Source: Ginglymostoma cirratum
Lineage: Eukaryota
NCBI GenBank assembly: GCA_024137785.1
Contig: JAHRHZ010000032.1
Location: 124,001 to 188,000 of the forward strand
Direction of reading: 5' to 3'
DNA: 64,000 nt
The translations under genes were made by a program, and so were the position numbers. Position 1 is the first letter of the stretch; each line of letters starts with the position of its first letter. Below are positions 10,650 through 37,161 of this stretch, piece after piece. Below the pieces are notes generated by a model. It did no database searches and had not been told where the DNA came from. It was given only the letters and a program-made list of their open reading frames with translations.

Positions 10650-10733
10650 TCAGCGACGAGGGGCTGAAGGGACAGCTGGTAATGGCTGCATTTGCAGTTG
10701 GTCATATGTGTCTTGCGTAGCTGTACTCAGTCC
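10650..10733 (-). CDS. CD247: CD3-zeta exon 8 (last coding exon): GLSTATQDTYDQLQMQPLPAVPSAPRR*
   Basis: Minus strand reads ttttgcag|GGACTGAGTACAGCTACG...CGTCGCTGA. It matches the human last exon [21 protein letters not shown]. Phase 0 acceptor; completes ITAM3 (YQGL-x7-YDQL). Confidence 0.96.
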   Translation of the reverse strand, partial: GLSTATQDTYDQLQMQPLPAVPSAPRR

Positions 10734-16323: not shown

Positions 16324-16362
16324 CTGGTAAATGTCATTCCCTCCCTTTCCTCTTCGCTTGGG
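16324..16362 (-). CDS. CD247: CD3-zeta exon 7: PKRRGKGGNDIYQ
   Basis: cttccccag|CCCAAG...TACCAG|gtaaga, 39 nt, phase 0/0. Homologous to human RRRGKGHDGLYQ. Confidence 0.95.
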
Positions 16363-17302: not shown

Positions 17303-17359
17303 CTGCTGAGTCGGTTTGAGTTCACCATAAGGCTCACTTCTGTTCTTAGGATTCAGTTT
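17303..17359 (-). CDS. CD247: CD3-zeta exon 6: KLNPKNRSEPYGELKPTQQ
   Basis: ttgattgcag|AAACTG...CAGCAG|gtatga, 57 nt, the same length as human exon 6. Completes ITAM2 (YSKL-x8-YGEL). Confidence 0.92.
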
Positions 17360-20402: not shown

Positions 20403-20435
20403 GGAATAGGTGTCATTGTGAGCAGCACCGTCTCT
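20403..20435 (-). CDS. CD247: CD3-zeta exon 5: RDGAAHNDTYS
   Basis: ccaacag|AGAGAC...TATTCC|gtaagt, 33 nt, phase 0/0. Ends in Y-x as ITAM-splitting exons do; perfect donor. Confidence 0.9.
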
Positions 20436-21517
20436 CTGTTGGTTTTGATAAGAAAAAGAGCAATGAATGTTGTATATTTGATAACACATTTTAAAAACAA
20501 AGTTAATGTTTTTCAAGTATCAGGTGAGGCTTTCAACTTCCTGGCAACCATAATGAGAACTTCTGTAATTGCATGTTTCACGTGGTAAACTTTTTATTAT
20601 GTGTTTCAGAATTCCAATTTGCTATTTTTGTTTAAAAATGATTGTAGGTCATGTCCTACTTCTAACATTATAAGCATCTTTTTATCCTTGCCTGCTTCTC
20701 GTTTTTGTCTTGCTTAAACCTAATTACATTAGCAATCCTACCTAAATAATTACAGGAGTAGTGTTGCAATAAAATAACCTTTGTTCTGTTTAAGTCTAAA
20801 GATTCACTGCTGTTATTTTTAAATGGAATGATTCGCTACTCATACACACACATTCTTATCTCATGGGGCCCTTTAAAGAAACACCTTTTGTATGGCCATA
20901 AAAATGAAAATAAATATTATACAATAACATGTTGCAACTTCATGGAAATAATGCAGTTGCATTTTGAAAATATTGAACACTTACAAATCACCTAATAACT
21001 AGCTGTGCATGTATTGTAGGAATTTCACACTGAACACTAATGCTCTTCTGTCACCCAATGAGTACTGTTTGTGGTGGCAGTGGTATTACAGTTCACTTAC
21101 ATGCACTTTGAGACAAATGTACTCTGGAGATATGGACGGTGATGGGTAGTGACACTTATATTCTTTGTATCACATGGCAGAAATGTTTCTTACTCTTACC
21201 GCCCACCATTAACTTGAGTTGGAAGGACTTGCAGACTGATATACAACCTGTTTGATTATGCAATCATCACACTTTCCTTCGCCATCAAGTGCTGGGATGG
21301 GCCCCGAGCCTGGGGTTCTGATTCAGGGGGTGGAAGAGCACCACAGGGCTCCTGCAGTAAGGTGCACCGTCTTGTGCAAATGACAATTGAGATTAGCCTA
21401 AACATCCCAGAAATTGTAACCTCAACATTTAAAAGGTTCATTCTGAATTTCCTGTTTTAAAATAGTCTGTGTTTGGAATCGGTTCTTATTTTATAAAATA
21501 TAAGTTAAAAAAAATAC

Positions 21518-21607
21518 ATGTTTTGTTCCAAATCCAGCCTCTGTGTCCTGGTTCCTTTTGTTAAAACCAAGGTGGGAATATGCATCTTGATCTCTCTTCT
21601 GCAAAGG
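21518..21607 (-). CDS. CD247: CD3-zeta exon 4: PLQKRDQDAYSHLGFNKRNQDTEAGFGTKH
   Basis: tatctttgcag|CCTTTG...AAACAT|gtattt, 90 nt, phase 0/0. Completes ITAM1 (YQPL-x7-YSHL). The donor is weak, so the 3' boundary is less certain. Confidence 0.88.
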
Positions 21608-24559
21608 CTGCAAAGATAATAAAAATTCTGATTACTCTGACAAATATCTCAAATATAATATAATCTATTTTCTTAGTGGTTCAGATCAATCACATAGATC
21701 ATTTAAATATTATCATTAGTGCCATGTTACTCTAGTGAATATTTCTAATGCAATAAAAGACTGAAGTAGCCGGCTGAGAAAGTTGAATAAGTCTTAAGAC
21801 ATGTTTTCAAAGTGATCAATAACTGTAAAAAGTTGACTTCTGATACTAATGTTGTGTCAAAATTGATACGCAAAATTTTTGCCAGATCACTTGGATCTCC
21901 TGCAGAAAAGTTTTTGTCAAATGACTGGCATTAGAAGCTGTCTTCTTCCAATCATTGCTTTTCAGCTGATTGTTTGAATCTCTGAATTTGAGGGATTTAC
22001 ACTGCATGCTGTTATGTGTTTAGTGCAATACATGATCCATTACCACTGGCTAGCTTACTGGGAAGACAAAGCGTGCAAGTTCTCTCCTGTCAGTACACTG
22101 CATCTGCATCACCAAGAACTGCAAAGTACCTCTTTGCAGTGACACATATCAACGAGTCACCATTCAGCCCTAGGTTGACCTGCATAGGATCTCAGAGAAA
22201 TCTTGGTCCACAGGAGTAAGGTATGAAGTCCCTCCAGCAAGTGGACACACCCTGATGTCCTTCCATCAGGTCTATGGGACCAATAGTACCCACTGCCTTG
22301 TGTGCCTGCCTTGGAAAAGTCAGAACCACTGGAGTGGAATCATATAGACAGCTGGTGATCAATTCAAACAAGCCGCTCCTTACAACTGAATGGGCTGAAG
22401 AAGGATGAGTTTCTGTCCTTCCTCTGGATTTAATCCATTTGGCCAAGAGAGAGATGTAGATACTGTGTAAGTCTCTCCCTGGATCCTGCTATGACTATGC
22501 AGCCAAAACAAATAGAAAGGACATCTCATCCTTAGTTTTATCTAGGTGGGGTGATGTCGGAGGAAAACACTTGAGATAGTAGTTTATAGCCCAGCTTGAT
22601 TGATTGATGTAACGGAGGTTGTCTCTAATGGACAGCATTGGCATTCTATTGGCCAACCACTACAAACGCCAGTCAATACAATACTAACCCACCAACATCT
22701 GCTTTCCTAAATGAGTGCATGAGGGTTGGGATTATGTTCCGACAAGCAGATGGCAAATGGGAACCCCTCAAATAAGACATGCAGATCCTCCAGCTTGAGG
22801 ACTGGAACTTCAAGTATGTGTGTCTTGGCATGAGGACTTGCAGTTCACAAATGGTATTCATAAGGCAGCACTGATCTGCCATGAGCTACATAACTGCAAA
22901 GTTGAAATTGCTGCTCTCAAAGAGACTAGATTGGTCAATAATGGAACACTATGTGAAGCCCATTACATAATCGACTACCCACTGGCATGGCAAAAGTTCA
23001 GCTGACCACCTGTGAACATGGAGTAAGTTTCATTGTCAAAAAAAAATGATAATTGAGGTATTTGTTGTGACTGCTGAACACCTTCAATCTCTTCATCCGG
23101 ACTTACGGAGCAACCTTGTATCCATTGCTGAAAACAAAGATCACCTATATGTTGGTCTTGAATGATATTCTGAAGCATCGGCAATACGAGGATGTTAATG
23201 CAAGAGTTAGATCAGATTTATTTTTGTCAAATATGCCTTAGTCATCTTGGCATTGGCAAGATGAATAATAATAGACAGCGACTATTAGAATGTTGTGCAC
23301 AGTGTGGTCTTTGTGTTCCTAACATCATCTTCCAGGGCAGACATCAGCACCCAGCACTATCCAGGATCTGGCCACTGGCACCAACCCTACCTGATAAACA
23401 GCGTTCCACATAACTCTGCATCTATCACAGTCCAGAGTGATACCGGTCACTCTCTAGTCACTGACAGGGGAATGGTGCAACAATGGAAAATATGCAAATC
23501 CAAATACAATGGCATGCCACACATCAATATTCCATGTAAAATGGATGAGAAGTTTCAGAAATTCTCAGAAGGTTTTTAAGACCCAGCATGCAGAAATTAT
23601 TTCTGTCACTGAAGCAAAAATGCAGCTCACCTGACTTCCAACCTGTCTCTTATACCTAAAGCACATTTCAATCTCAAGCAACCAATGAGGTGTGTGGATC
23701 AGCAAGTTACTTTTATTAACCTCTTCCATGGGATATAGGTGTTGCTGGCTAGGTCTGCATTAATTGTCTATCCCTAATTACCCTGGATGGGGTTAGATGC
23801 TACTGTCAAAGAGGCTATTGACCCTGTAGCAGCAAGGGAAATCCCTGGAATAGATGGACTACCAGCTGAGCTGCTCAAATATAAAAACCTCCTGCTGCGG
23901 CTCTTTCTCTGTGACCTCTTCTTCCTCTGCTGGAGAAAAAAACTGTTCAACCAATGTGTGTAACACAAGCATCAAGTTATGCAAGAACAAAGGCAATTGA
24001 AGAGATTATAGCAACAACCACAGCATCTCACTCCTCAGCATCATAGAAAGTTCTTTGCTATTGTTGTGCTTAAGGAAGCTGTAATGACTAGCCTTGAGAT
24101 TATTCCTGATGTACAATGTGGTTGCAGAATGGGTAGATCCAAAGCAGATATGATCTGCTTAGAGAAAATAGGTGCTCCTTCCTTGATAACATGTCCAGCA
24201 ACATTCAGTTTGATAGTTCCACCTCTGCTAGTTTTGTGATCAAGAATGGAATCAATTAGGGCTGTGCTGTAGTCCCTACTATTTTTTTTTTGGTCCATCA
24301 CCTGTCATACGGCAAGATATAAGCGTGGTGAGACGGGAACTTCCTGAACCTATCAAGACTGAAAACCAAGTCAAACGTGTAGAACGTTACGATCAGAAAA
24401 CTTCTGTACACAGGTGGTGCTGCACCCATTGCCCAGAGAGATCAGCAGCTCCCAAGGCTCATGGTGTCACGCCTGTGTTGTGTTTACACCCACCTACAGT
24501 GTCAAGAAAACTAATTCTAGTACAGAATATTGTGCCTCCACCAATGATCAGACACAATC

Positions 24560-24904
24560 GGGAGGCGGTGGCCTAGTGGTATTATCACTGGACTATTGAG
24601 CCAGAGAGTGTTCTGGGGACCTGGGTTTGAACCCTGCCATGGCAGATGGTAGAATGTGAATTCAATAAAATATCTGGAATTAGGAATCTAAGGATGACCA
24701 TGAATCCATTGTCGATTGTTGGAAAAATCCATTTGGTTCACTAATGTCCTTTAGGGAAGGAAACTGCCATCCTTACCTGGTCTGGCCTACATGTGACTGC
24801 AGACCCACAGCAATGTGGTCGATTCTCAACTGCCCTCTGTGTAATTAGGGATGGGCAATAAATGCTGCCTGGCTAGTGACGCCCTCATCCCATGAATGAA
24901 TAAA
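24560..24904 (+). mobile_element. tRNA-derived SINE (family 2) with L2/CR1-group LINE tail
   Basis: Head GGTGGCCTAGTGGTATT; tail ATTAGGGATGGGCAATAAATGCTG...CATCCCATGAATGAATAAA. Near-identical to 32055-32412. Confidence 0.88.
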
Positions 24905-25317
24905 GGGAAAAATAAATCACACACTTCTGAAAACATTCAAGCAATTCTGCCACCTTGGATCTATGGCTAGAGAACCTCCCTATTGTTGAAGTGCTCAGTA
25001 CATGCATTGGAATGATAGTTACCAATATTAAGCTGACTAACTAAACAGCCATGGGATAACTACAAACTGACCTGAAGGATCAAGGTGTTTATCTACAAAT
25101 CGTTTATCCTCACTGTATTGGTGTATAGCAGTAAAGCCTGGATAAACTATACTTACCATAAGAAGAAGCTCAATATTCTCCATCTTTGATTTCTAACTCA
25201 CATCCTGACACTCACAGAAACATGAATAACCAAGTCCTTATTTGGGCAAGCCTTGCAAACATGCTAACACTGATCAAGATGGCTTCACTGGTTTGGGCAT
25301 GCGTGCAGGATAGAAGA

Positions 25318-28300
25318 TAGAACATAGAACATTACAGAGCAGCACAGGCCCTTCGGCCCTCAATGTTGCACCGACCTGTGAAACCAATCTGAAGCCCATC
25401 TAACCTACACTATTCCATTATCATCCATATGTTTATCCAACGACCATTTAAATGCCCTTAAAGTTGGCGAGTCTACTACTGTTGCAGGCAGGGCATTCCA
25501 TGCCCTTACTACTCTCTGAGTGAAGAACCTACCTCTGACATCTGTCCTATATCTATCACCCCTCAATTTAAAGCTATGTCCCCTCGTGCTAGCCATCACC
25601 ATCTGAGGAAAAAGGCTCTCACTGTCCACCGTATCTAATCCCCTGATCATCTTGTATGTCTCTATTAAGTTACCTCTTAACCTTCTTCTCTCTAACGAAA
25701 CAGCCTCAAGTCCCTCAGCCTTTCCTCATAAGACCTTCCCTCCATACCAGGCAACATCTTGGTAAATCTCCTCTGCACCCTTTCCAATGCTTCCACATCC
25801 TTCCTATAATGCGGCGACCAGAACTGTATGCAATACTCCAAGTGCGACCACACCAGAGTTTTGTACAGCTGCAACATAACCTCATGGCTCCGAAACTCAA
25901 TCCCTCTACCAATAAAACCTAACACACCGTACGCCTTCTTAACAACCCTATCAACCTGGGTGGCAACTTTCAGGGATCTATGCACATGGACACTGAGATC
26001 TCTCTGCTCGTCCACACTACCAAGAATCTTACCATTAGCCAAGTACTCTGTATTTCTGTTACTCCTTCCAAAGTGAATCACCTCACACTTTTCCACATTA
26101 AACTCCATTTGCCACCTCTCAGCCCAGCTCTGCAGCTTATCTATGTCTCTCTGTAAGCTGCAACATCCTTCCGCACTATCCACAACTCCACTGACTTTAG
26201 TGTCGTCCGCAAATTTACTAACCCATCCTTCTACGCCCTCATCCAGGTCATTTATAAAAATGACAAACAGCAGTGGCCCCAAAACAGATCCTTGCGGTAC
26301 ACCACTAGTATGTGAAGTCCAGGATGAACATTTCCCATCAACCACCACCCTCTGTCTTCTTACAGCTAGCCGATTTCTTATCCAAACCGGTAAATCACCC
26401 TCAATCCCATGCCTCCGTATTTTCTGCAATAGCCTATCGTGGGGAACCTTATCAAACGCTTTACTGAAATCCATATACACCACATCAACCGCTTTACCCT
26501 CATCCACCTGTTTGGTCACCTTCTCAAAGAACTTAATAAGGTTTGTGAGGCACAACCTACCCTTCACAAAACCGTGTTGACTATCCCTAATCAAATTATT
26601 CCTTTCTGGATGATTATAAATCCTATCTCTTATAATCCTTTCCAACACTTTACCCACAACCGAAGTAAGGCTCACTGGTCTATAATTACCAGGGTTGTCT
26701 CTACTCCCCTTCTTGAACAAGGGGGCAACATTTGCTATCCTCCAGTCTTCTGGCACTATTCCTATAGACAATGATGACATAAAGATCAAAGCCAAAGGCT
26801 CTGCAATCTCCTCCCTAGCTTCCCAGAGAATCCTAGGATAAATCCCATCCGGCCCAGGGAACTTATCTATTTTCACACTTTCCAGAATTGCTAACACCTC
26901 CTCCTTACGAAACTCAATCCCATTTAGTCTAATAGCCTGTATCTCAGTATTCTCCTCGACAACATTGTCTTTTTCCTGTGTGAATACTGATGAAAAATAT
27001 TTATTTCGCGCTTCTCCTATCTCTTCTGACTCCACGCACAACTTCCCACTACTGTCCTTGACTGGCCCTAATCTTACTCTAGTCATTCTTTTATTCCTGA
27101 CATACCTATAGAAAGCTTTAGGGTTTTCCTTGATCCTACCTGCCAAAGACTTCTCATGTCCCCTCCTGGCTCTTCTTAGCTCTCTCTTTAAGTCCTTCCT
27201 GGCTAACCTGTAACTCTCAAGCGCCCTAACTGAGCCTTCACGCCTCATCTTTACATGAGCCTCCTTCTTCCTCTTGACAAGAGATTCAACTTCTTTAGTA
27301 AACCACGGTTCCCTCACTCGACCACCTCCTCCCTGCCTGACAGGGACATACTTATCAAGGACACGCAGTAGCTGTTCCTTGAACAAGCTCCACATTTCAA
27401 TTGTGCCTAGCCCCTGCAGTTTCCTTCCCCATCCTAAATCTTGCCTAATTGCCTTTTCCCCAGCTATAACTCTTGCCCTATGATATATACCTATCCCTTT
27501 CCATCGCTAATGTAACTGAATTGTGGTCACTATCACTAACGTGCTCACCTATCTCCAAATCTAACACGTGGCCTGGTTCATTACCCAGTACCAAATCCAA
27601 TGTGGCCTTGCCTCTTGTTGGCCTATCCACATACTGTGTCAGGAAACCTTCCTGCACACATTGGACAAAAACTGACCCATCTAAAGTACTCAAACTATGG
27701 CGTTTCCAGTCAATATTTGGAAAGTTAAAGACCGCATAACAACTCCCTGTTACTTTCGCTCCTATCCAGAATCATCTTTGCAATCCTTTCCTCTACATCT
27801 CTGGAACTTTTCGGAGGCCTATAGAAAACTCCCAACAAGGTGACCTCTCCTTTCCTGTTTCTAACCTCAGCCCATACTATCTCAGTAGACGAGTCCTCAT
27901 CAAACGTCCTTTCTGCCACCGTAATACTGTCCTTGACTAACAATGCCACACCTTCTTTTTACCACCTTCCCTGATCTTACTGAAACGTCTAAACCCCGGA
28001 ACCTGCAACAACCATTCCTGTCCCTGCTCTATCCATGTCTCCGAAATGGCCACAACATCGAAGTCCCAGGTACCAACCCATGCTGCAAGTTCACCCGCCC
28101 TATTCCGAATGCTCCTGACGTTGAAGTAGACACACTTCAAACCACCTTTCTGCCTGCCAGTACACTCCTGCAACCTTGAAACCTTATTCATGACCTCACT
28201 ACTCTCAACCTCCTGTACACTGGACCTACAATTCAGGTTCCTATTCCCCTGCTGAATTAGTTTAAACCCTCCCGAACAGCATTAGCAAACATCCCCCCCA

Positions 28301-28735
28301 GGATATTGGCACCCCTTTGGTTCAGGTATAGACCATCCCGTTTGTAGAGGTCCCACCTACCCCAGAATGAGCCCCAATTATCCAGGTATTTGAATCCCTC
28401 CATCCTGCACCATCCTTGTAGCCACGTGTTGAACTGCTCTCGCTCCCTATTCCTCGCCTCGCTAGCATGTGGCACGGGTAACAAACCGGAGATAACAACT
28501 CTGCTTGTTCTAGCTCTAAGCTTCCACCCTAGCTCCTTGAATTTCTGCCCTACGTCCCCTTTCCTTTTCCTACCTATGTCGTTGGTGCCTATGTGGACCA
28601 CGACTTGGGGCTGCTCCCCCCATCCCACCTTTAAGGATCCCAAAAACACGATCCAAGACATCACGGACCCTGGCACCTGGGAGGCAACACACCAACCGCG
28701 AGTCTCTCTCGTTTCCACAGAACCTCCTATCTGTC
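25318..28735 (-). mobile_element. Long young CR1 LINE: 3' part of ORF1 (SGNH esterase), endonuclease and RT; frameshifted
   Basis: ORF1 motifs PGARV, HIGTND and DGLYLN (28257-28718). Endonuclease fragments at 27478-28191. A 567-aa RT ORF at 25692-27395 with FADD, and an (AGAACAT)n tail. Confidence 0.97.
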
Positions 28736-28804
28736 CACATCCTCAAAGGTATGCAATATGGGAAGGTAACCTGCAAGGTGCCCAACATTCTGGTTAAAGA
28801 ACAA

Positions 28805-29445
28805 TTGAATTGTTGTTGCCACATGTACTGAGATACAGTGAAAAGTGTTGTTTGTGTCCTATTCAGGTAGATTGTCCCATACAAATTGCATCAGGGTAGC
28901 AGAACAGAGTGTAGACTATAGTGTTACAGCCACAGAGAAGGTGCAGAGTGAGAGATCAGAATTAACATTTAAGATGTCCATACAAAACTCTAATAAAAGC
29001 GAGGAAGAAGCTGTTCTTGAGTCTATACGTGTATTCTAACATTTATATCTTCTGCCTGATGGGAGAGGGTAGCAGACAGCGTAACTGGGGGTGGGAGAGG
29101 TCTTTGATTATGTTGGTTGCTTTCCTGAAGTGGGAAATATAGATGGAGTCAATGGATGGGAGGCTGGTCTGCGTGATGGATTGGGCTGCATTCACAACTC
29201 TCTGTAGTTTCTTGTGTCTTAGGAAGAGCAGTTGCCATACCACGCTGTGATGCATCCAGATCTATAAAAATTGTTAAGAGACATTGGGGACATGCCAAAT
29301 TTCCTTAGTCTCCTGAGGAAGGAGAGATGTTATTGTGCTTTCTTGACTGTTGCGTTGATGTGGGAGGATCAGGACGGGTTGTTGGTGATCATTACTCCCA
29401 GGAACTTGGTGCTCTCAGCCATCTCCATCTCAGCATCATTGAGGT
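28805..29445 (-). mobile_element. Rex1/Babar-like LINE 3' fragment
   Basis: KKLQRVVNAAQSITQTSLPSIDSIY..RKATNIIKDLSHP..LLPS is typical of the Rex1/Babar ORF C-terminus. Confidence 0.8.
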
Positions 29446-30834
29446 TAAAAGAGACATAAATGTCCTTAGCACCAATCACAGGGTGTTAGTGAGCAGAAAT
29501 GATAATCAATGTGAATGGCAACACCAGCTGTACACAGCAGTTTGCCACCACACAACAGCACGTAGTTTCTGAAGCTCCAAAACAGGTGCCAGGCGTGCAA
29601 ACAAAGTGTGAGTAAAAATCATCCCTTGGATCTTTAAAGACCTAACCCAACTCCAAGTAACTTTTAGTCGGGCAGAACACTCCAGCATAAACTTTTAAAA
29701 CTTTTAATCTGTAATGCCTGTGATAGAATTCCCACACATGTGAGCCGTCAGGATGGTTTACTGATTTAAAGGTGCTATATACATGCAGTTTTTTGATTAT
29801 TGCCTGATAGGAAAAAAATGCTTTATCTTAATATTTTATCGCCTGATCACCAACTATCCTGTTATATTGTATTATAAAGTAATGTAAAAGCTGTATTTAT
29901 TTCATTGTCTCTATTTCTGAACATAGAGACCCTGGAGTACCACTGCTAGAAAAGGATCGATCCATGAGTGAGCACTCTAGTGTTCAGTTACCAATATGCA
30001 ACACATGTCAGGAACACAGAAGACTGAGACAATCTTATTGGCTGGTTTTACCTAGGGCTTAATATGAAGATGTTTGCTCATATGCTGAAGTGCAAACAGT
30101 AATTGGGTTGTACATAGATTTCAACTACTACCTCAGCTCTTGAGAGTTACCTGTCGGAACCAGCATTCAAAATGCTTTTCAATGGGGAATGGTCTGTGCC
30201 AATGCACTGACGAATGGGCACAAACCATATGTACAGTTTACAGTCAGTTGTGCTGCACTTGACAGTAGAACCTGCTTATCTCGCAGTGGCTTGTCAACTA
30301 TGTAATTACTTTCCGCATTAACAGTTGGAGCAGAGACTCCTCAGGGTTGGATTGACTCCAATGTGATTCAGCTCGCCATGACAGATTAGAATTGAATGAA
30401 CTTGTCAACAAATTGGCTTGGACATGTAAGTGTTACTACAGAAAGCTGTATCAGCCACCTAGCTAACCAAAAGGAAGTGAAATCAGTTTGGTCAGCCACA
30501 AGTCACTTCGTGGATACAAGTCCAGAACACAGAATTGTTTCAGTTAACACTGATTGGTACCAAAGTGCTTGTATCACTCAGAACAGCTTCAGTAGGAAAC
30601 AGAAGTCTCATAAGGGTGCGAGATGTTCCCCTATATCACAACATGTATTGGAGAAGTGGAGATTTAATAGAATGTTTTAAAGTTATGAAATGTACTGTCG
30701 TAGTGAGTTGAGAAGGACAGATTTAGCTGTTTGTGAATCAACAGTTAATTGCTGTCTTGATGTCAATGGCAGTCACCCCAGCATTCCTTCTGGAGTTCAG
30801 TTCCCTTGTCCCTCTTCAGATCAAGGTTGCAACA

Positions 30835-31110
30835 TTGATTGATTGATTGTCACATGTACCAAAGTAGAGTGAAAAGCTTTTTTTACGAGTAGTACAAGTA
30901 GATCATAGCAAGCAAAGATGTATAGATCAAAAAGACTTAGAGGTATACAAGTTACATTGCACTGGGCGCGCGCTAGTTGAGATCAATGTTAGCAAGACCA
31001 GCATCATTTGAGGCTAGAGAGTCCATTCATCAGTCTAATAATGGCTGGGAAGAAGCTGTTCCTGGACCTGATAGTGTGTGTGTGTGTTCAAGCTTCTGTA
31101 TCTTATGCCT
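30835..31110 (-). mobile_element. Rex1/Babar-like 3' UTR fragment
   Basis: Homologous to 28805-29060 (CACATGTAC..AGTGAAAAG, GAAGAAGCTGTTC). Confidence 0.65.
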
Positions 31111-31199
31111 GCCTGCATGGTCTTGGCAGAACCCAAGCTGAGGATCAATGAGCAGGTTATTATTGTGCTTGATAGCACTTAATTCCTTCCAAACACATG

Positions 31200-32953
31200 A
31201 CATTTGATCATCTCTGATATACCTAGATGTTTTCCAATACTAATGCATGGGGAACACATATAACAAACCTCTGTGAAATCTAAAAGGAATCAAACTGTTG
31301 GACAATCCAGTATCAGCATAGGCACTGGAGATGATAACAGCAAAGTGCTCCCTACTAACATTTAGGGACTCATGCCAAAATAGGGTTAGTTAAGCAAAAG
31401 CCTGACATAGTCATACTCATGGAATCATCTTACTGAAAAATTCCCTAAGCAACACCATCACCATCCCTGGGTATATCTTGTCCCACCAGCAAGACAGACC
31501 ATCCAGTTGTATGAAGTGAGGGGTTGGGGAGGGGGTGATGCCCTGGGTATTCTCAACATTAATTTCAGATCTCATAACATCCTATGGATTCAAGTCAAAC
31601 ATGGGCAAGGGAATCTCCTGCTGATCACCACCTACAACCTCCCACTCCCCAGCTGATGAATCAGTGTGTCTCTATGTTGAACAACACTTGGAAGAAGCAC
31701 TGAGGAGGACAAGGGGATAGAATATACTCTGGAGGGTGACTTGAGTGTCCATCACCAAGAGTAACTTGGCAATGCCGATACTGACCAAGCTGGCCCAGTC
31801 CTAAAGGATATACCTGCTGGACGGAGTATGCACAGATACTGAGGAAACCAACAAGAGGAAAACTATTTGACCTAATCCTCACCTGTTGCATACATATCAG
31901 TCCATGACATTATTAGGAAGAGTAACCATTGCACAATCCTTGTGGAAACGCAATCCTGTCTTCACATTGAGAATATCTTCCATTGTTTTATGCTAAATGG
32001 GGTCAACTTGAAACTTATCGTACAACTCAAAACTAGGAATCCATGTGGCTATATGGCGACGTGATGGCCTAGTGGTGTTATCACCGGACTGTTAATCCAG
32101 AGAGCCAGGTAACATTCTAGAGGCCAGGGTTTGAATCATGCCACAGATGACGGTGGAATTTGAATTCAATAAAAAAAAAATCTGGAATTAGGAATCCAAT
32201 GATGACCCCAAAGCCATTGTCGATTGTCAATCTGGTTCACTAACGTCCTTTAAGGAAGGAAACTGCCATCCTTACCTGGTCTGGCCTACATGTGACTCCA
32301 GACCCACAGCAATGTGGTTGACTCTGAACTGCCCTCTGGGCAATTAGGGATGGGCAATAAATGCTGCCTAGCTAGTGACGCCCTCATCCCGTTAAATGAA
32401 TTTTAAAAAAAAGTTCTGGGCCATCAACAGCAGCAGATTGTATTCAATCACAGATTGTAATTTCATTTTCCCCACTGTACTATTATCAACAGGCCAAAGG
32501 ATCAACACAGGACAGCATACCAAGAGAAGCACCAGGCATACCTACAAAGGAACTGTCAGCCTGTCAAGCATCCACTCCTTCCACCACCAACACTCAGTAA
32601 CAGCCATGTGTACTATCTACAAAAGCACTGCAGAAATTCACCAAAAATCTTTAGGCAGCACTTTCCAAACCCACAACCTCTTCCATCCTGAAGGACAAGG
32701 GCACCAGATACATGGGAACACCGCCACCTTCAAGTTTCCCTCCAAGCCACTCACCACCCTGACTTGGAAATATATCACCATTCCTTCAAAATCCTGGAAT
32801 TCCCTCCCTAAGGGCATTGTCAGTCATCCCACAGCAGCTGGACTGCAGTGCTTCAAGAAGGCAGCTCACAACCATCTTCTCAAGGACAACTAGGGATGGG
32901 CAAAAATGCTGACCAGCCAGCGATGCCCACATCCCACAAATGAATAAAAAAAA
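31200..32953 (+). mobile_element. Internally deleted L2/CR1-group LINE (endonuclease + 3' end) with nested SINE
   Basis: KQKPDIVIL, TITIPGYILSHQQDRP and QVKHGQGNLLLITTY endonuclease motifs. C-terminus SIHSFHHQHSVTAMCTIYK; tail ...CACATCCCACAAATGAATAAAAAA. Confidence 0.75.
32055..32412 (+). mobile_element. tRNA-derived SINE (family 2)
   Basis: Colinear with 24560-24904. Confidence 0.88.
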
Positions 32954-33170
32954 ACCTGGTGAAGCTACAACATAGGATAAGTTGCACGCCAAACCACATA
33001 AGCATAAAGCAATCCCACAACCATCTCATTAGATGCATGTTCTGCAGTCTTGAACATCTAATTGTGAATGGTGGTGGGCAATTACACAACTGACAGGAGG
33101 AAAAAGTCAGTTTCAGTTTGCTATTACTTCATTCTTGACAAAGCACTTCAGTCATTTCATTTTGAAACAA

Positions 33171-33329
33171 AAAGGCTGACGTTTTGGGTCTGGACCCTTT
33201 TCTGAAGAAGGGTCCAGAACCAAAACGTCGGCTTTCCTGCCCGTCTGATGCTGCTTGGCCTGCTGTGTTCATCCAGCTCCACACCTTGTTATCTCAGATT
33301 CTCCAGCATCTGCAGTTCCTACTATCTCT
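33171..33329 (+). mobile_element. Penelope-like pLTR remnant with short inverted 5' segment and degenerate hammerhead
   Basis: CTGAAGA-AGGGTCCAGAACC-AAAACGTC followed by the same tail as 37335-37430. 33171-33199 is an inverted copy of 33208-33235. Confidence 0.85.
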
Positions 33330-33448
33330 GAATTCAATCATTGTTGCTGTGTTATCCATTTTATTAGACCTGTCCCAAATCAGGATGCTATTGTCCCTGT
33401 GATATACAAAGAATAGCCAATTTAAAGAAAATGTAAACCGTTACTTAC

Positions 33449-33517
33449 TTGATATTGGTCTTCTGTATTTGGTTGGTTTGCAGGAATATCTTCATGTTTT
33501 CCTTTTGCTTTGGTCAG
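33449..33517 (-). CDS. CD247: CD3-zeta exon 3: LTKAKGKHEDIPANQPNTEDQYQ
   Basis: ttgttttcaaag|CTGACC...TATCAA|gtaagt, 69 nt, phase 0/0. Juxtamembrane basic residues; ends Y-x. Confidence 0.92.
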
Positions 33518-34733: not shown

Positions 34734-34837
34734 CCTCAGCTTAAGGTAGAGACCAGTGACTACAATCCCATAGACAAAGAGAATTCCGTCGAGAATATAA
34801 CACAACTTGGGGTCATCCAGGTTCATAACGTCAGCAT
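34734..34837 (-). CDS. CD247: CD3-zeta exon 2 (ectodomain + TM): xADVMNLDDPKLCYILDGILFVYGIVVTGLYLKLR
   Basis: cattttgacag|ATGCTG...CTGAGG|gtaagt, 104 nt, phase 1/0, as in human exon 2. Has the diagnostic DPKLCYxLDGILFxYG with the dimer Cys, TM Asp, Tyr and Thr. Confidence 0.98.
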
Positions 34838-37061: not shown

Positions 37062-37161
37062 NNNNNNNNNNNNNNNNNNNNNNNNNNNNNNNNNNNNNNN
37101 NNNNNNNNNNNNNNNNNNNNNNNNNNNNNNNNNNNNNNNNNNNNNNNNNNNNNNNNNNNNN
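37062..37161. other. Assembly gap (100 N)
   Basis: Run of N. Confidence 1.

Follow-up and report, generated by a model that had tools for sequence, protein, structure and literature searches.

The first ITAM (ITAM1) encoded by CD247, the gene for the TCR zeta chain, in the shark Ginglymostoma cirratum looks more like the ITAM of CD3-gamma/delta than like its human zeta counterpart, which raises the question of how a zeta chain came by such a sequence. The gene lies in the 64-kb stretch of DNA that was analyzed (hereafter, the window) and is in itself known and ordinary, i.e., an intact, spliced shark CD247 with three ITAMs. In the spliced-frame reading of the window, exons 2–8 are in frame, on the minus strand throughout and separated by GT-AG introns (Table 1). 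Human CD247 has eight exons; exon 1 was searched for within the 64-kb window and not found, and it probably lies beyond the window end. Exon 2 has human CD3 zeta as its best PDB match (E = 1.3e-10), with FcR-gamma behind (E = 4e-8), and its region shares 95% identity with the zeta of the whale shark. A PF11628 score of 57 bits (cut-off 25) indicates a zeta-type transmembrane region, with the dimer Cys and the acidic Asp present, and exon 4 has a PF02189 match over the cut-off. Three YxxL-x7/8-YxxL motifs occur in the spliced frame and were aligned with 15 cartilaginous-fish and 21 bony-vertebrate zeta chains. Exon 3 closes with its Tyr-Gln codons followed by GTAAGT, and exon 4, directly preceded by TTTGCAG, opens with PLQKRDQDAYSHLGFN; its end, earlier placed at 21554, is corrected here to 21518. 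The longer form of exon 7 is the one used in whale-shark and bamboo-shark proteins.

Table 1 Exons of CD247 in the window and the intron that interrupts ITAM1.
Feature	Position	Strand	Length	Content
Exon 2	34734..34837	-	104 nt	Short ectodomain and transmembrane helix, Cys and Asp of zeta dimer
Exon 3	33449..33517	-	69 nt	Juxtamembrane; Tyr-Gln of ITAM1 at its end (33454-33449)
Intron 3	21608..33448	-	11,841 nt	Phase 0, GT-AG; interrupts ITAM1; LINE-like remnants inside
Exon 4	21518..21607	-	90 nt	Remainder of ITAM1 (second tyrosine module 21580-21569) and zeta-type D-x-E linker
Exon 5	20403..20435	-	33 nt	Tyr-Ser of ITAM2 at its end
Exon 6	17303..17359	-	57 nt	Remainder of ITAM2, 8-residue spacer
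Exon 7	16324..16362	-	39 nt, or 33 nt via predicted second acceptor 16356	Basic stretch; Tyr-Gln of ITAM3 at end
Exon 8, coding part	10650..10733	-	84 nt including stop	Remainder of ITAM3 and C-terminus

ITAM1 is encoded across the junction of exons 3 and 4, as the preliminary description had it, and transcripts do join the two: the end of exon 3 was matched by the loose end at 21607 in three of four runs, namely the three contig runs. The exon 4/5 joint (21518-20435) was present in all four runs, and in all four the loose end at 20403 matched the start of exon 6. None of the listed datasets with the 3' stretch is recorded as RNA, yet the runs show spliced joints; the tissue of the runs is not given. 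Expression of shark CD3Z is high in thymus (PMC10768021), and the part shown of a shark CD3Z transcript (GenBank GIWU01168378; supplement file 3 of the same paper) matches exons 2 and 3 and the start of exon 4 by eye. CD247 is linked to CREG1 (PMC4536121).

The human CD3-delta, CD3-gamma and zeta ITAM1 sequences given in the preliminary description were right on comparison. Hand counts reproduced the identity of 12/18 between this ITAM1 and human CD3-delta (PDB 6jxr_d) and of only 4/18 with human zeta ITAM1 (P0052); for human CD3-gamma (6jxr_g) the count is 11/18. Its 15-residue core is identical at 10 positions to CD3-gamma and likewise at 10 to CD3-delta. PDB matches to CD3 chains were weak (E 0.045–1.2), and exon 4 alone gave no PDB match at E ≤ 10. 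On a diagnostic set of nine non-consensus positions common to human and mouse CD3-gamma/delta, which is a mammalian signature only, this ITAM1 scores 6/9. Among 218 distinct bony-vertebrate zeta/FcR-gamma ITAMs, one reaches 5/9 and six reach 3/9; the likeness exceeds the family background. By sequence, human zeta is a poor comparator (4/15 of the core), because the core agrees at 9/15 positions with cyprinid and at 8/15 with lungfish zeta ITAM1. No title or abstract opening in a literature search reported the resemblance; an earlier description may exist. Catshark TCR/CD3 is reportedly the subject of a study by Pettinello et al. in 2017.

How widely the motif occurs could be read from 16 cartilaginous fishes. 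The type is not confined to G. cirratum: 14 of the 15 other zeta ITAM1s read Y[QE]..+YS... The extra matches are probably recent. Diagnostic scores run from 1 to 6 (mean 3.4), with G. cirratum at the extreme and four species at only 1/9. Eight species score at least 5/9, as against one of 218 bony-vertebrate ITAMs, and the chimaera, with 5/9, has CD3-gamma as its sole PDB match; these observations run counter to a purely recent likeness. Gln+1, Pro+2, Asp+7 and Ser are majority states (9 to 15 of 16 species, Pro+2 being absent in six). Among the eight non-consensus identities to CD3-delta, Arg+6, His and Gly each occur in only three species. Arg+6 and Gly are restricted to three carpet sharks; the His of YSHL is missing from the two closest relatives of this gene, and in 13 species altogether. 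The best-kept spacer residues, Lys+5 (15/16), Gln+8 (15/16) and Gln+4 (13/16), are none of them gamma/delta residues, and the gamma/delta spacer residues Asp+5 and Gln-1 are found in none and one of the 16, respectively. ITAM1 is the least conserved zeta ITAM both in cartilaginous fishes (mean identity 0.67 vs 0.88 and 0.83 for the other two; 16 species) and in bony vertebrates (0.45 vs 0.58 and 0.87; 21 species). Xenopus zeta paralogues also differ in ITAM1 (PMC4536121).

Searches of PDB with eight ITAM queries led to CD3-gamma/delta for three, to DAP12 for one and to nothing for four. All five matches of catshark ITAM1 and seven of the eight of whale-shark ITAM1 were CD3-gamma/delta chains, not zeta; cod, sawfish and sevengill ITAMs gave no match at E ≤ 10. 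The likeness is not specific to gamma/delta, because skate ITAM1 matched only DAP12, at the same E-value level, and a cod zeta ITAM scores 5/9 on the gamma/delta positions. Cyprinid zeta ITAM1 and one zeta ITAM of cod likewise carry YQP[LI]. Taking the commonest shark residue at each position, hand counts gave 9/15 for DAP12, 8/15 for CD3-gamma, 8/15 for CD3-delta and 7/15 for CD3-epsilon; the G. cirratum core itself agrees at 8/15 with DAP12 and at 7/15 with CD3-epsilon. The CD3 and DAP12 comparators were human and mouse only, those for the DAP12 and CD3-epsilon counts human. An ESM Atlas search returned one generic ITAM cluster (0.77).

Within the zeta/FcR-gamma family, bony-vertebrate ITAM1 resembles zeta ITAM3 (z 3.0–3.4; 0–1 of 300 shuffles). 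Shark and bony-vertebrate ITAM1 show no measurable likeness at non-consensus positions (z 0.5), so it is exon order and flanks that support their orthology by position. FcR-gamma (FCER1G), a zeta paralogue of the same transmembrane family, has one or two ITAMs, and its terminal ITAM matches zeta ITAM3 (z 3.4–4.0). In a ray, two catsharks and amphibians an extra membrane-proximal ITAM sits at the place of zeta ITAM1, aligns with it and always starts with YE; it is weakly similar to shark zeta ITAM1 (z 1.9, 8/300 shuffles, one of 15 comparisons).

The gene shares with CD247 of other jawed vertebrates (PF11628 plus PF02189) the transmembrane CYxLD, three ITAMs with spacers of 7/8/7 residues and the split of each after Tyr+1, and differs in the second module of ITAM1, which is YSxL in 15/16 cartilaginous fishes and YDxL in 18/21 bony vertebrates. 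With CD3-gamma/delta (human 6jxr_g and 6jxr_d; mouse peptides in PMC10681901) it has in common a YQPL first and a YS[HR]L second module. Unlike them it lacks an Ig domain, a CxxC stalk and a di-leucine motif; close shark orthologues give only PF11628 and PF02189 in Pfam, and the ectodomain is a few residues long. CD3-gamma/delta have a single ITAM near the C-terminus on a terminal exon, whereas the ITAM1 exon of CD247 is internal and followed by four further coding exons and two ITAMs. DAP12/TYROBP (PDB 7q5w) and CD3-epsilon (peptide, bioRxiv 10.1101/524447) share the Y[QE]x[LI]..D.YSxL type with shark ITAM1; they are separate genes with one ITAM each.

CD3-gamma/delta and CD3-epsilon of this species were not found in readable genome DNA. 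CD3 genes are expected beside UBE4 by synteny; scans around both UBE4 genes found no CD3 in readable DNA, and a large part of the flank expected to hold CD3 reads N. Loci with Pfam Ig_4 (8 of 13 examined, 8 translated) and Ig_5 (4 of 4 examined, 3 translated) proved to be unrelated Ig exons, and 17 matches to a degenerate CD3 stalk pattern included none with a transmembrane exon. An ITAM family search of the genome returned this CD247 gene only. A profile search started from fragments of shark ITAM1 returned, among 129 candidates, only 8 cartilaginous-fish zeta chains and no non-mammalian CD3-gamma/delta, and no CD3gd ITAM was found in the supplements of PMC3964593, PMC10768021, PMC4536121 and PMC7775753.

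The preliminary description had considered an ancestral module, a shuffled ITAM exon and convergence, and had taken the phase-0 intron after Tyr-Gln as a mark of CD3D. The intron argument is void, because the split after Tyr+1 is found in each of the three ITAMs here and classical ITAMs are reportedly always split in the first tyrosine module (PMC4536121); ITAM1 has this classical layout, YxxL/I-x6-8-YxxL/I on two exons. As a source of exon 4, exon shuffling appears unlikely, because exon 4 lies inside the zeta gene, keeps the frame at either end and resembles bony-vertebrate zeta in its 3' half. Copying of ITAM sequence to CD247 from a CD3-gamma/delta gene, by shuffling or gene conversion in an early cartilaginous fish, would accord with the 10/15 core identities and with compatible ITAM exon phases, and is nonetheless highly improbable. 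The motif straddles the 11.8-kb intron, so that two exons would need changing; exon 4 runs on into the zeta-type linker, with D-x-E in 16/16 cartilaginous and 19/21 bony-vertebrate zeta chains, whereas human CD3-delta, 171 aa long, stops five residues past the aligned part, which reaches residue 166. In its number of exons the gene is like any normal zeta gene. A strict genome search with exon 4 gave one candidate, exon 4 itself, although none of the CD3 genes of this species was found either. Exons 4 and 8 of this gene are identical at 18/39 nt.

Deep homology, in which shark zeta ITAM1 and the CD3-gamma/delta ITAM would both keep a sequence that predates the split of zeta/FcR-gamma and CD3, agrees with the proposed common origin of ITAM subunits from paralogous regions (PMC4536121), the four majority states, the gamma-like chimaera ITAM1 and the alignable proximal ITAM of FcR-gamma. 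We consider it rather unlikely: ITAM1 changes fastest among the ITAMs and is a poor site for the retention of so old a sequence, DAP12 is matched equally well, the likeness to the FcR-gamma proximal ITAM is weak, and four species score only 1/9. Still less probable is that selection drove ITAM1 to the gamma/delta sequence because it had acquired a role like that of gamma/delta, for instance in recruiting a phosphatase or as a tyrosine-based sorting signal. PMC4584282 lists YQPL among T-cell receptor internalization signals, and in PMC10681901 SHP-1 is bound by the C-terminal tyrosine of mouse CD3-delta in its singly phosphorylated form. In the latter paper, however, CD3-gamma has YSHL without SHP-1 binding and mouse CD3-delta has YSRL, so YSHL is not the SHP-1 determinant, and the absence of Pro+2 in 6/16 species and of His in 13/16 is unlike a selected motif. 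Mouse gamma and delta ITAMs are, moreover, reported not to be required for thymocytes to mature (PMC12058738).

Given the observed gene structure and splicing, the way residues are distributed among living species and a likeness to DAP12 and CD3-epsilon that is comparable, we favor as reasonably probable that an ITAM1 type shared by cartilaginous fishes plus a few recent, independent substitutions, not transfer from a CD3 gene, explain the extra likeness to CD3-delta. Of the three options considered earlier, convergence fits the species-specific part best. An ITAM1 of the type Y[QE]xL-x7-YSxL is common to cartilaginous fishes, and chance substitutions at this fast-evolving site would add CD3-delta-like residues in this lineage. 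In line with known zeta-chain biology (PMC12058738), the chain would form dimers within the membrane; in each ITAM both tyrosines would be phosphorylated by Lck and serve as docking sites for the tandem SH2 domains of ZAP-70. Strong fixation in ITAMs is confined to the tyrosines, the Leu/Ile at +3 and the spacing; with so few fixed positions, the others take their residues from a small common pool, polar and acidic, and unrelated ITAMs end up resembling one another. The clade-wide Y[QE]xL..YSxL type is possibly old, and in bony vertebrates ITAM1 may have drifted away until its second half, YDxL, resembled that of ITAM3.

A bolder and distinctly doubtful possibility is that in zeta ITAM1 the cartilaginous fishes have kept the membrane-proximal ITAM (Y[QE]xL..D.YSxL) that was ancestral to all antigen-receptor signaling chains. 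If so, this type would still be visible in CD3-gamma/delta, CD3-epsilon, DAP12 and the proximal ITAM of shark and amphibian FcR-gamma, and the zeta/FcR-gamma ancestor would have carried two or more ITAMs that differed in type; mammals and teleosts would have lost the proximal ITAM of FcR-gamma, and bony vertebrates would have rewritten that of zeta. The origin of the signaling chains from one module has so far been argued from chromosome position. Since 11 positions are free and homoplasy is strong, the ITAM1 motif by itself is unlikely to settle it. Should the clade-wide type prove ancestral, it would be a sequence trace of TCR, Fc-receptor and DAP12 chains arising from one module, and in these fishes nature would provide a zeta chain whose first ITAM differs, a testbed for whether ITAM sequence diversity matters.

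The zeta-chain gene CD247 occupies the minus strand of the window with every intron GT-AG and the frame kept. Its transmembrane exon matched PF11628, with no second match to that family reported from the genome, and had human CD3 zeta as its best PDB match; the nearest proteins were zeta chains of carpet sharks. Exon 1 was looked for within the window and not found. PMC10768021 (supplement file 3) contains a shark CD3Z transcript, the displayed part of which agrees by eye with exons 2 to 4; CD247 is therefore a known gene, already on record.

Features of the window
Feature	Position	Strand	Basis
CD247 exon 2, transmembrane	34837-34734	-	six-frame and splice-site scans
CD247 exon 3	33517-33449	-	six-frame and splice-site scans
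CD247 exon 4	21607-21518	-	six-frame and splice-site scans
CD247 exon 5	20435-20403	-	six-frame and splice-site scans
CD247 exon 6	17359-17303	-	six-frame and splice-site scans
CD247 exon 7	16362/16356-16324	-	six-frame and splice-site scans
CD247 exon 8	10733-10650	-	six-frame and splice-site scans
Putative LINE reverse-transcriptase remnant, 604 codons	27506-25695	-	open frame, by eye
Putative LINE reverse-transcriptase remnant, 326 codons	50891-51868	+	open frame, by eye
Putative LINE reverse-transcriptase remnant, 409 codons	2469-1243	-	open frame, by eye
N gap, 100 bases	37062-37161		

Transcript contigs joined the end of exon 3 to exon 4 in three of four runs, and joints 4/5 and 5/6 were present in all four. 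The exon 4 donor looks weak (CAT/GTATTT). Intron 4 (20436-21517) was wholly covered by a contig in one run (depth 318 vs 1077 for the spliced form) and partly in the other three, which may represent unspliced pre-mRNA; read-through would meet a stop after 8 intronic codons and yield a short chain with ITAM1 as sole ITAM. The two AG acceptors of exon 7, 6 nt apart, would include or skip Pro-Lys before the basic stretch; the longer form appears in the models of both whale shark and bamboo shark.

The preliminary description held that ITAM1 resembles the CD3-gamma/delta ITAM, and this resemblance is real. Hand counts reproduced its 12/18 identity to CD3-delta and the low identity to human zeta ITAM1 (4/18), with 11/18 to CD3-gamma. 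On nine non-consensus positions common to human and mouse gamma and delta, ITAM1 scored 6, a level reached by none of 218 distinct ITAMs from bony-vertebrate zeta and FcR-gamma chains (one at 5, six at 3). Catshark and whale-shark ITAM1 fragments retrieved CD3-gamma/delta chains and no zeta among 177,635 PDB sequences, at weak E values (0.045 to 1.2). A literature search of titles and abstract openings found no earlier report of this resemblance.

The proposed interpretation, an ancestral module, a shuffled exon or convergence, was partly supported. Across 16 cartilaginous fishes the score ranged from 1 to 6 (mean 3.4; at least 5 in eight, 1 in four), making G. cirratum the extreme case. The Y[QE]..+YS.. 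type occurs in 14 of the 15 other cartilaginous-fish ITAM1s vs 3/218 bony-vertebrate family ITAMs, and the chimaera resembles gamma through residues that differ in part; it follows that the type spans the clade and is not restricted to this species. Of eight non-consensus identities to CD3-delta, five are frequent (Gln+1 11/16, Pro+2 10/16, Asp+7 9/16, Ser 15/16, Asn 10/16), whereas Arg+6, His and Gly occur in 3/16 each. Arg and Gly are confined to three carpet sharks, which also lack 3-4 residues (NQR) that the remaining sharks have at the exon 4/5 boundary (20403-20435; zeta chain alignment A1). His likely arose more than once, because it is present in G. cirratum, white shark and catshark and absent from whale shark and bamboo shark. 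We thus prefer a clade-wide type with a few recent independent substitutions over transfer from a CD3 gene.

The phase-0 intron after YQ had been taken to match the CD3D structure, but this argument fails: each of the three CD247 ITAMs is split by a phase-0 intron after residue +1 of the first tyrosine, and PMC4536121 describes a split within the first tyrosine module as constant in classical ITAMs. Exon shuffling is unlikely: exon 4 is internal, and an 11.8-kb intron divides the motif. The 3' half of exon 4 also carries the zeta D-x-E linker (16/16 cartilaginous and 19/21 bony-vertebrate zeta chains, 37 stored rows hand-picked for coverage of the tree). The species' own CD3gd was searched for in the readable DNA of the genome and not found.

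Judged by sequence comparison, the likeness is not specific to gamma/delta. With CD3 and DAP12 comparators all mammalian, the commonest shark residue per position agreed by hand count with DAP12 at 9/15, gamma and delta at 8/15 each and CD3-epsilon (peptide from bioRxiv 10.1101/524447) at 7/15, and the best-kept spacer residues (Lys+5, Gln+8, Gln+4) are unlike gamma/delta. The skate fragment matched only human DAP12 in the PDB (E 0.48), a level equalled by the chimaera match to CD3-gamma (E 0.51). YQP[LI] also occurs in cyprinid zeta ITAM1 and one cod zeta ITAM. In identity to the G. cirratum ITAM1 core, Sinocyclocheilus (9/15) and lungfish (8/15) zeta ITAM1 come almost as close as CD3-delta (10/15); a comparison with human zeta therefore makes the case look stronger than it is. 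Within cartilaginous fishes and within bony vertebrates alike, ITAM1 is less conserved than the other two ITAMs, and the lost second Leu in Erpetoichthys (P0098, YDEP), Acipenser (P0111, YDQA) and Albula (P0139, YDPP) is another sign of weak constraint.

Lck phosphorylates zeta ITAMs and ZAP-70 binds them (PMC12058738), and shark ITAM1 would be phosphorylated and bound in the manner usual for zeta ITAMs. A role of its own, akin to that of gamma/delta, is possible but has little support: PMC4584282 tabulates YQPL as a sorting signal, yet its Pro is absent in 6/16 cartilaginous-fish ITAM1s, and in PMC10681901 SHP-1 binds the mouse CD3-delta tail, which has YSRL, but fails to bind the gamma tail, which has YSHL.

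Shark and bony-vertebrate ITAM1 showed no measurable likeness at free positions (z 0.5), and bony-vertebrate ITAM1 resembled ITAM3 (z 3.0-3.4). Two-ITAM FcR-gamma-like chains, found in Narcine (P0183), two Scyliorhinus species (P0221, P0281) and amphibians (P0166, P0282, P0270), suggest an ancestor with two ITAMs; PMC4536121 describes the second ITAM as unique to Xenopus laevis FcR-gamma. Chimaera (P0173) and lungfish (P0255) FcR-gamma chains carry a degenerate proximal motif, and rattlesnake FcR-gamma (P0213) seems to retain the proximal ITAM alone. The proximal ITAM is weakly like shark zeta ITAM1 (z 1.9; 8/300 shuffles, uncorrected among 15 comparisons). It starts with YE and aligns with zeta ITAM1, which hints that the ITAM1 type may predate the zeta/FcR-gamma split.
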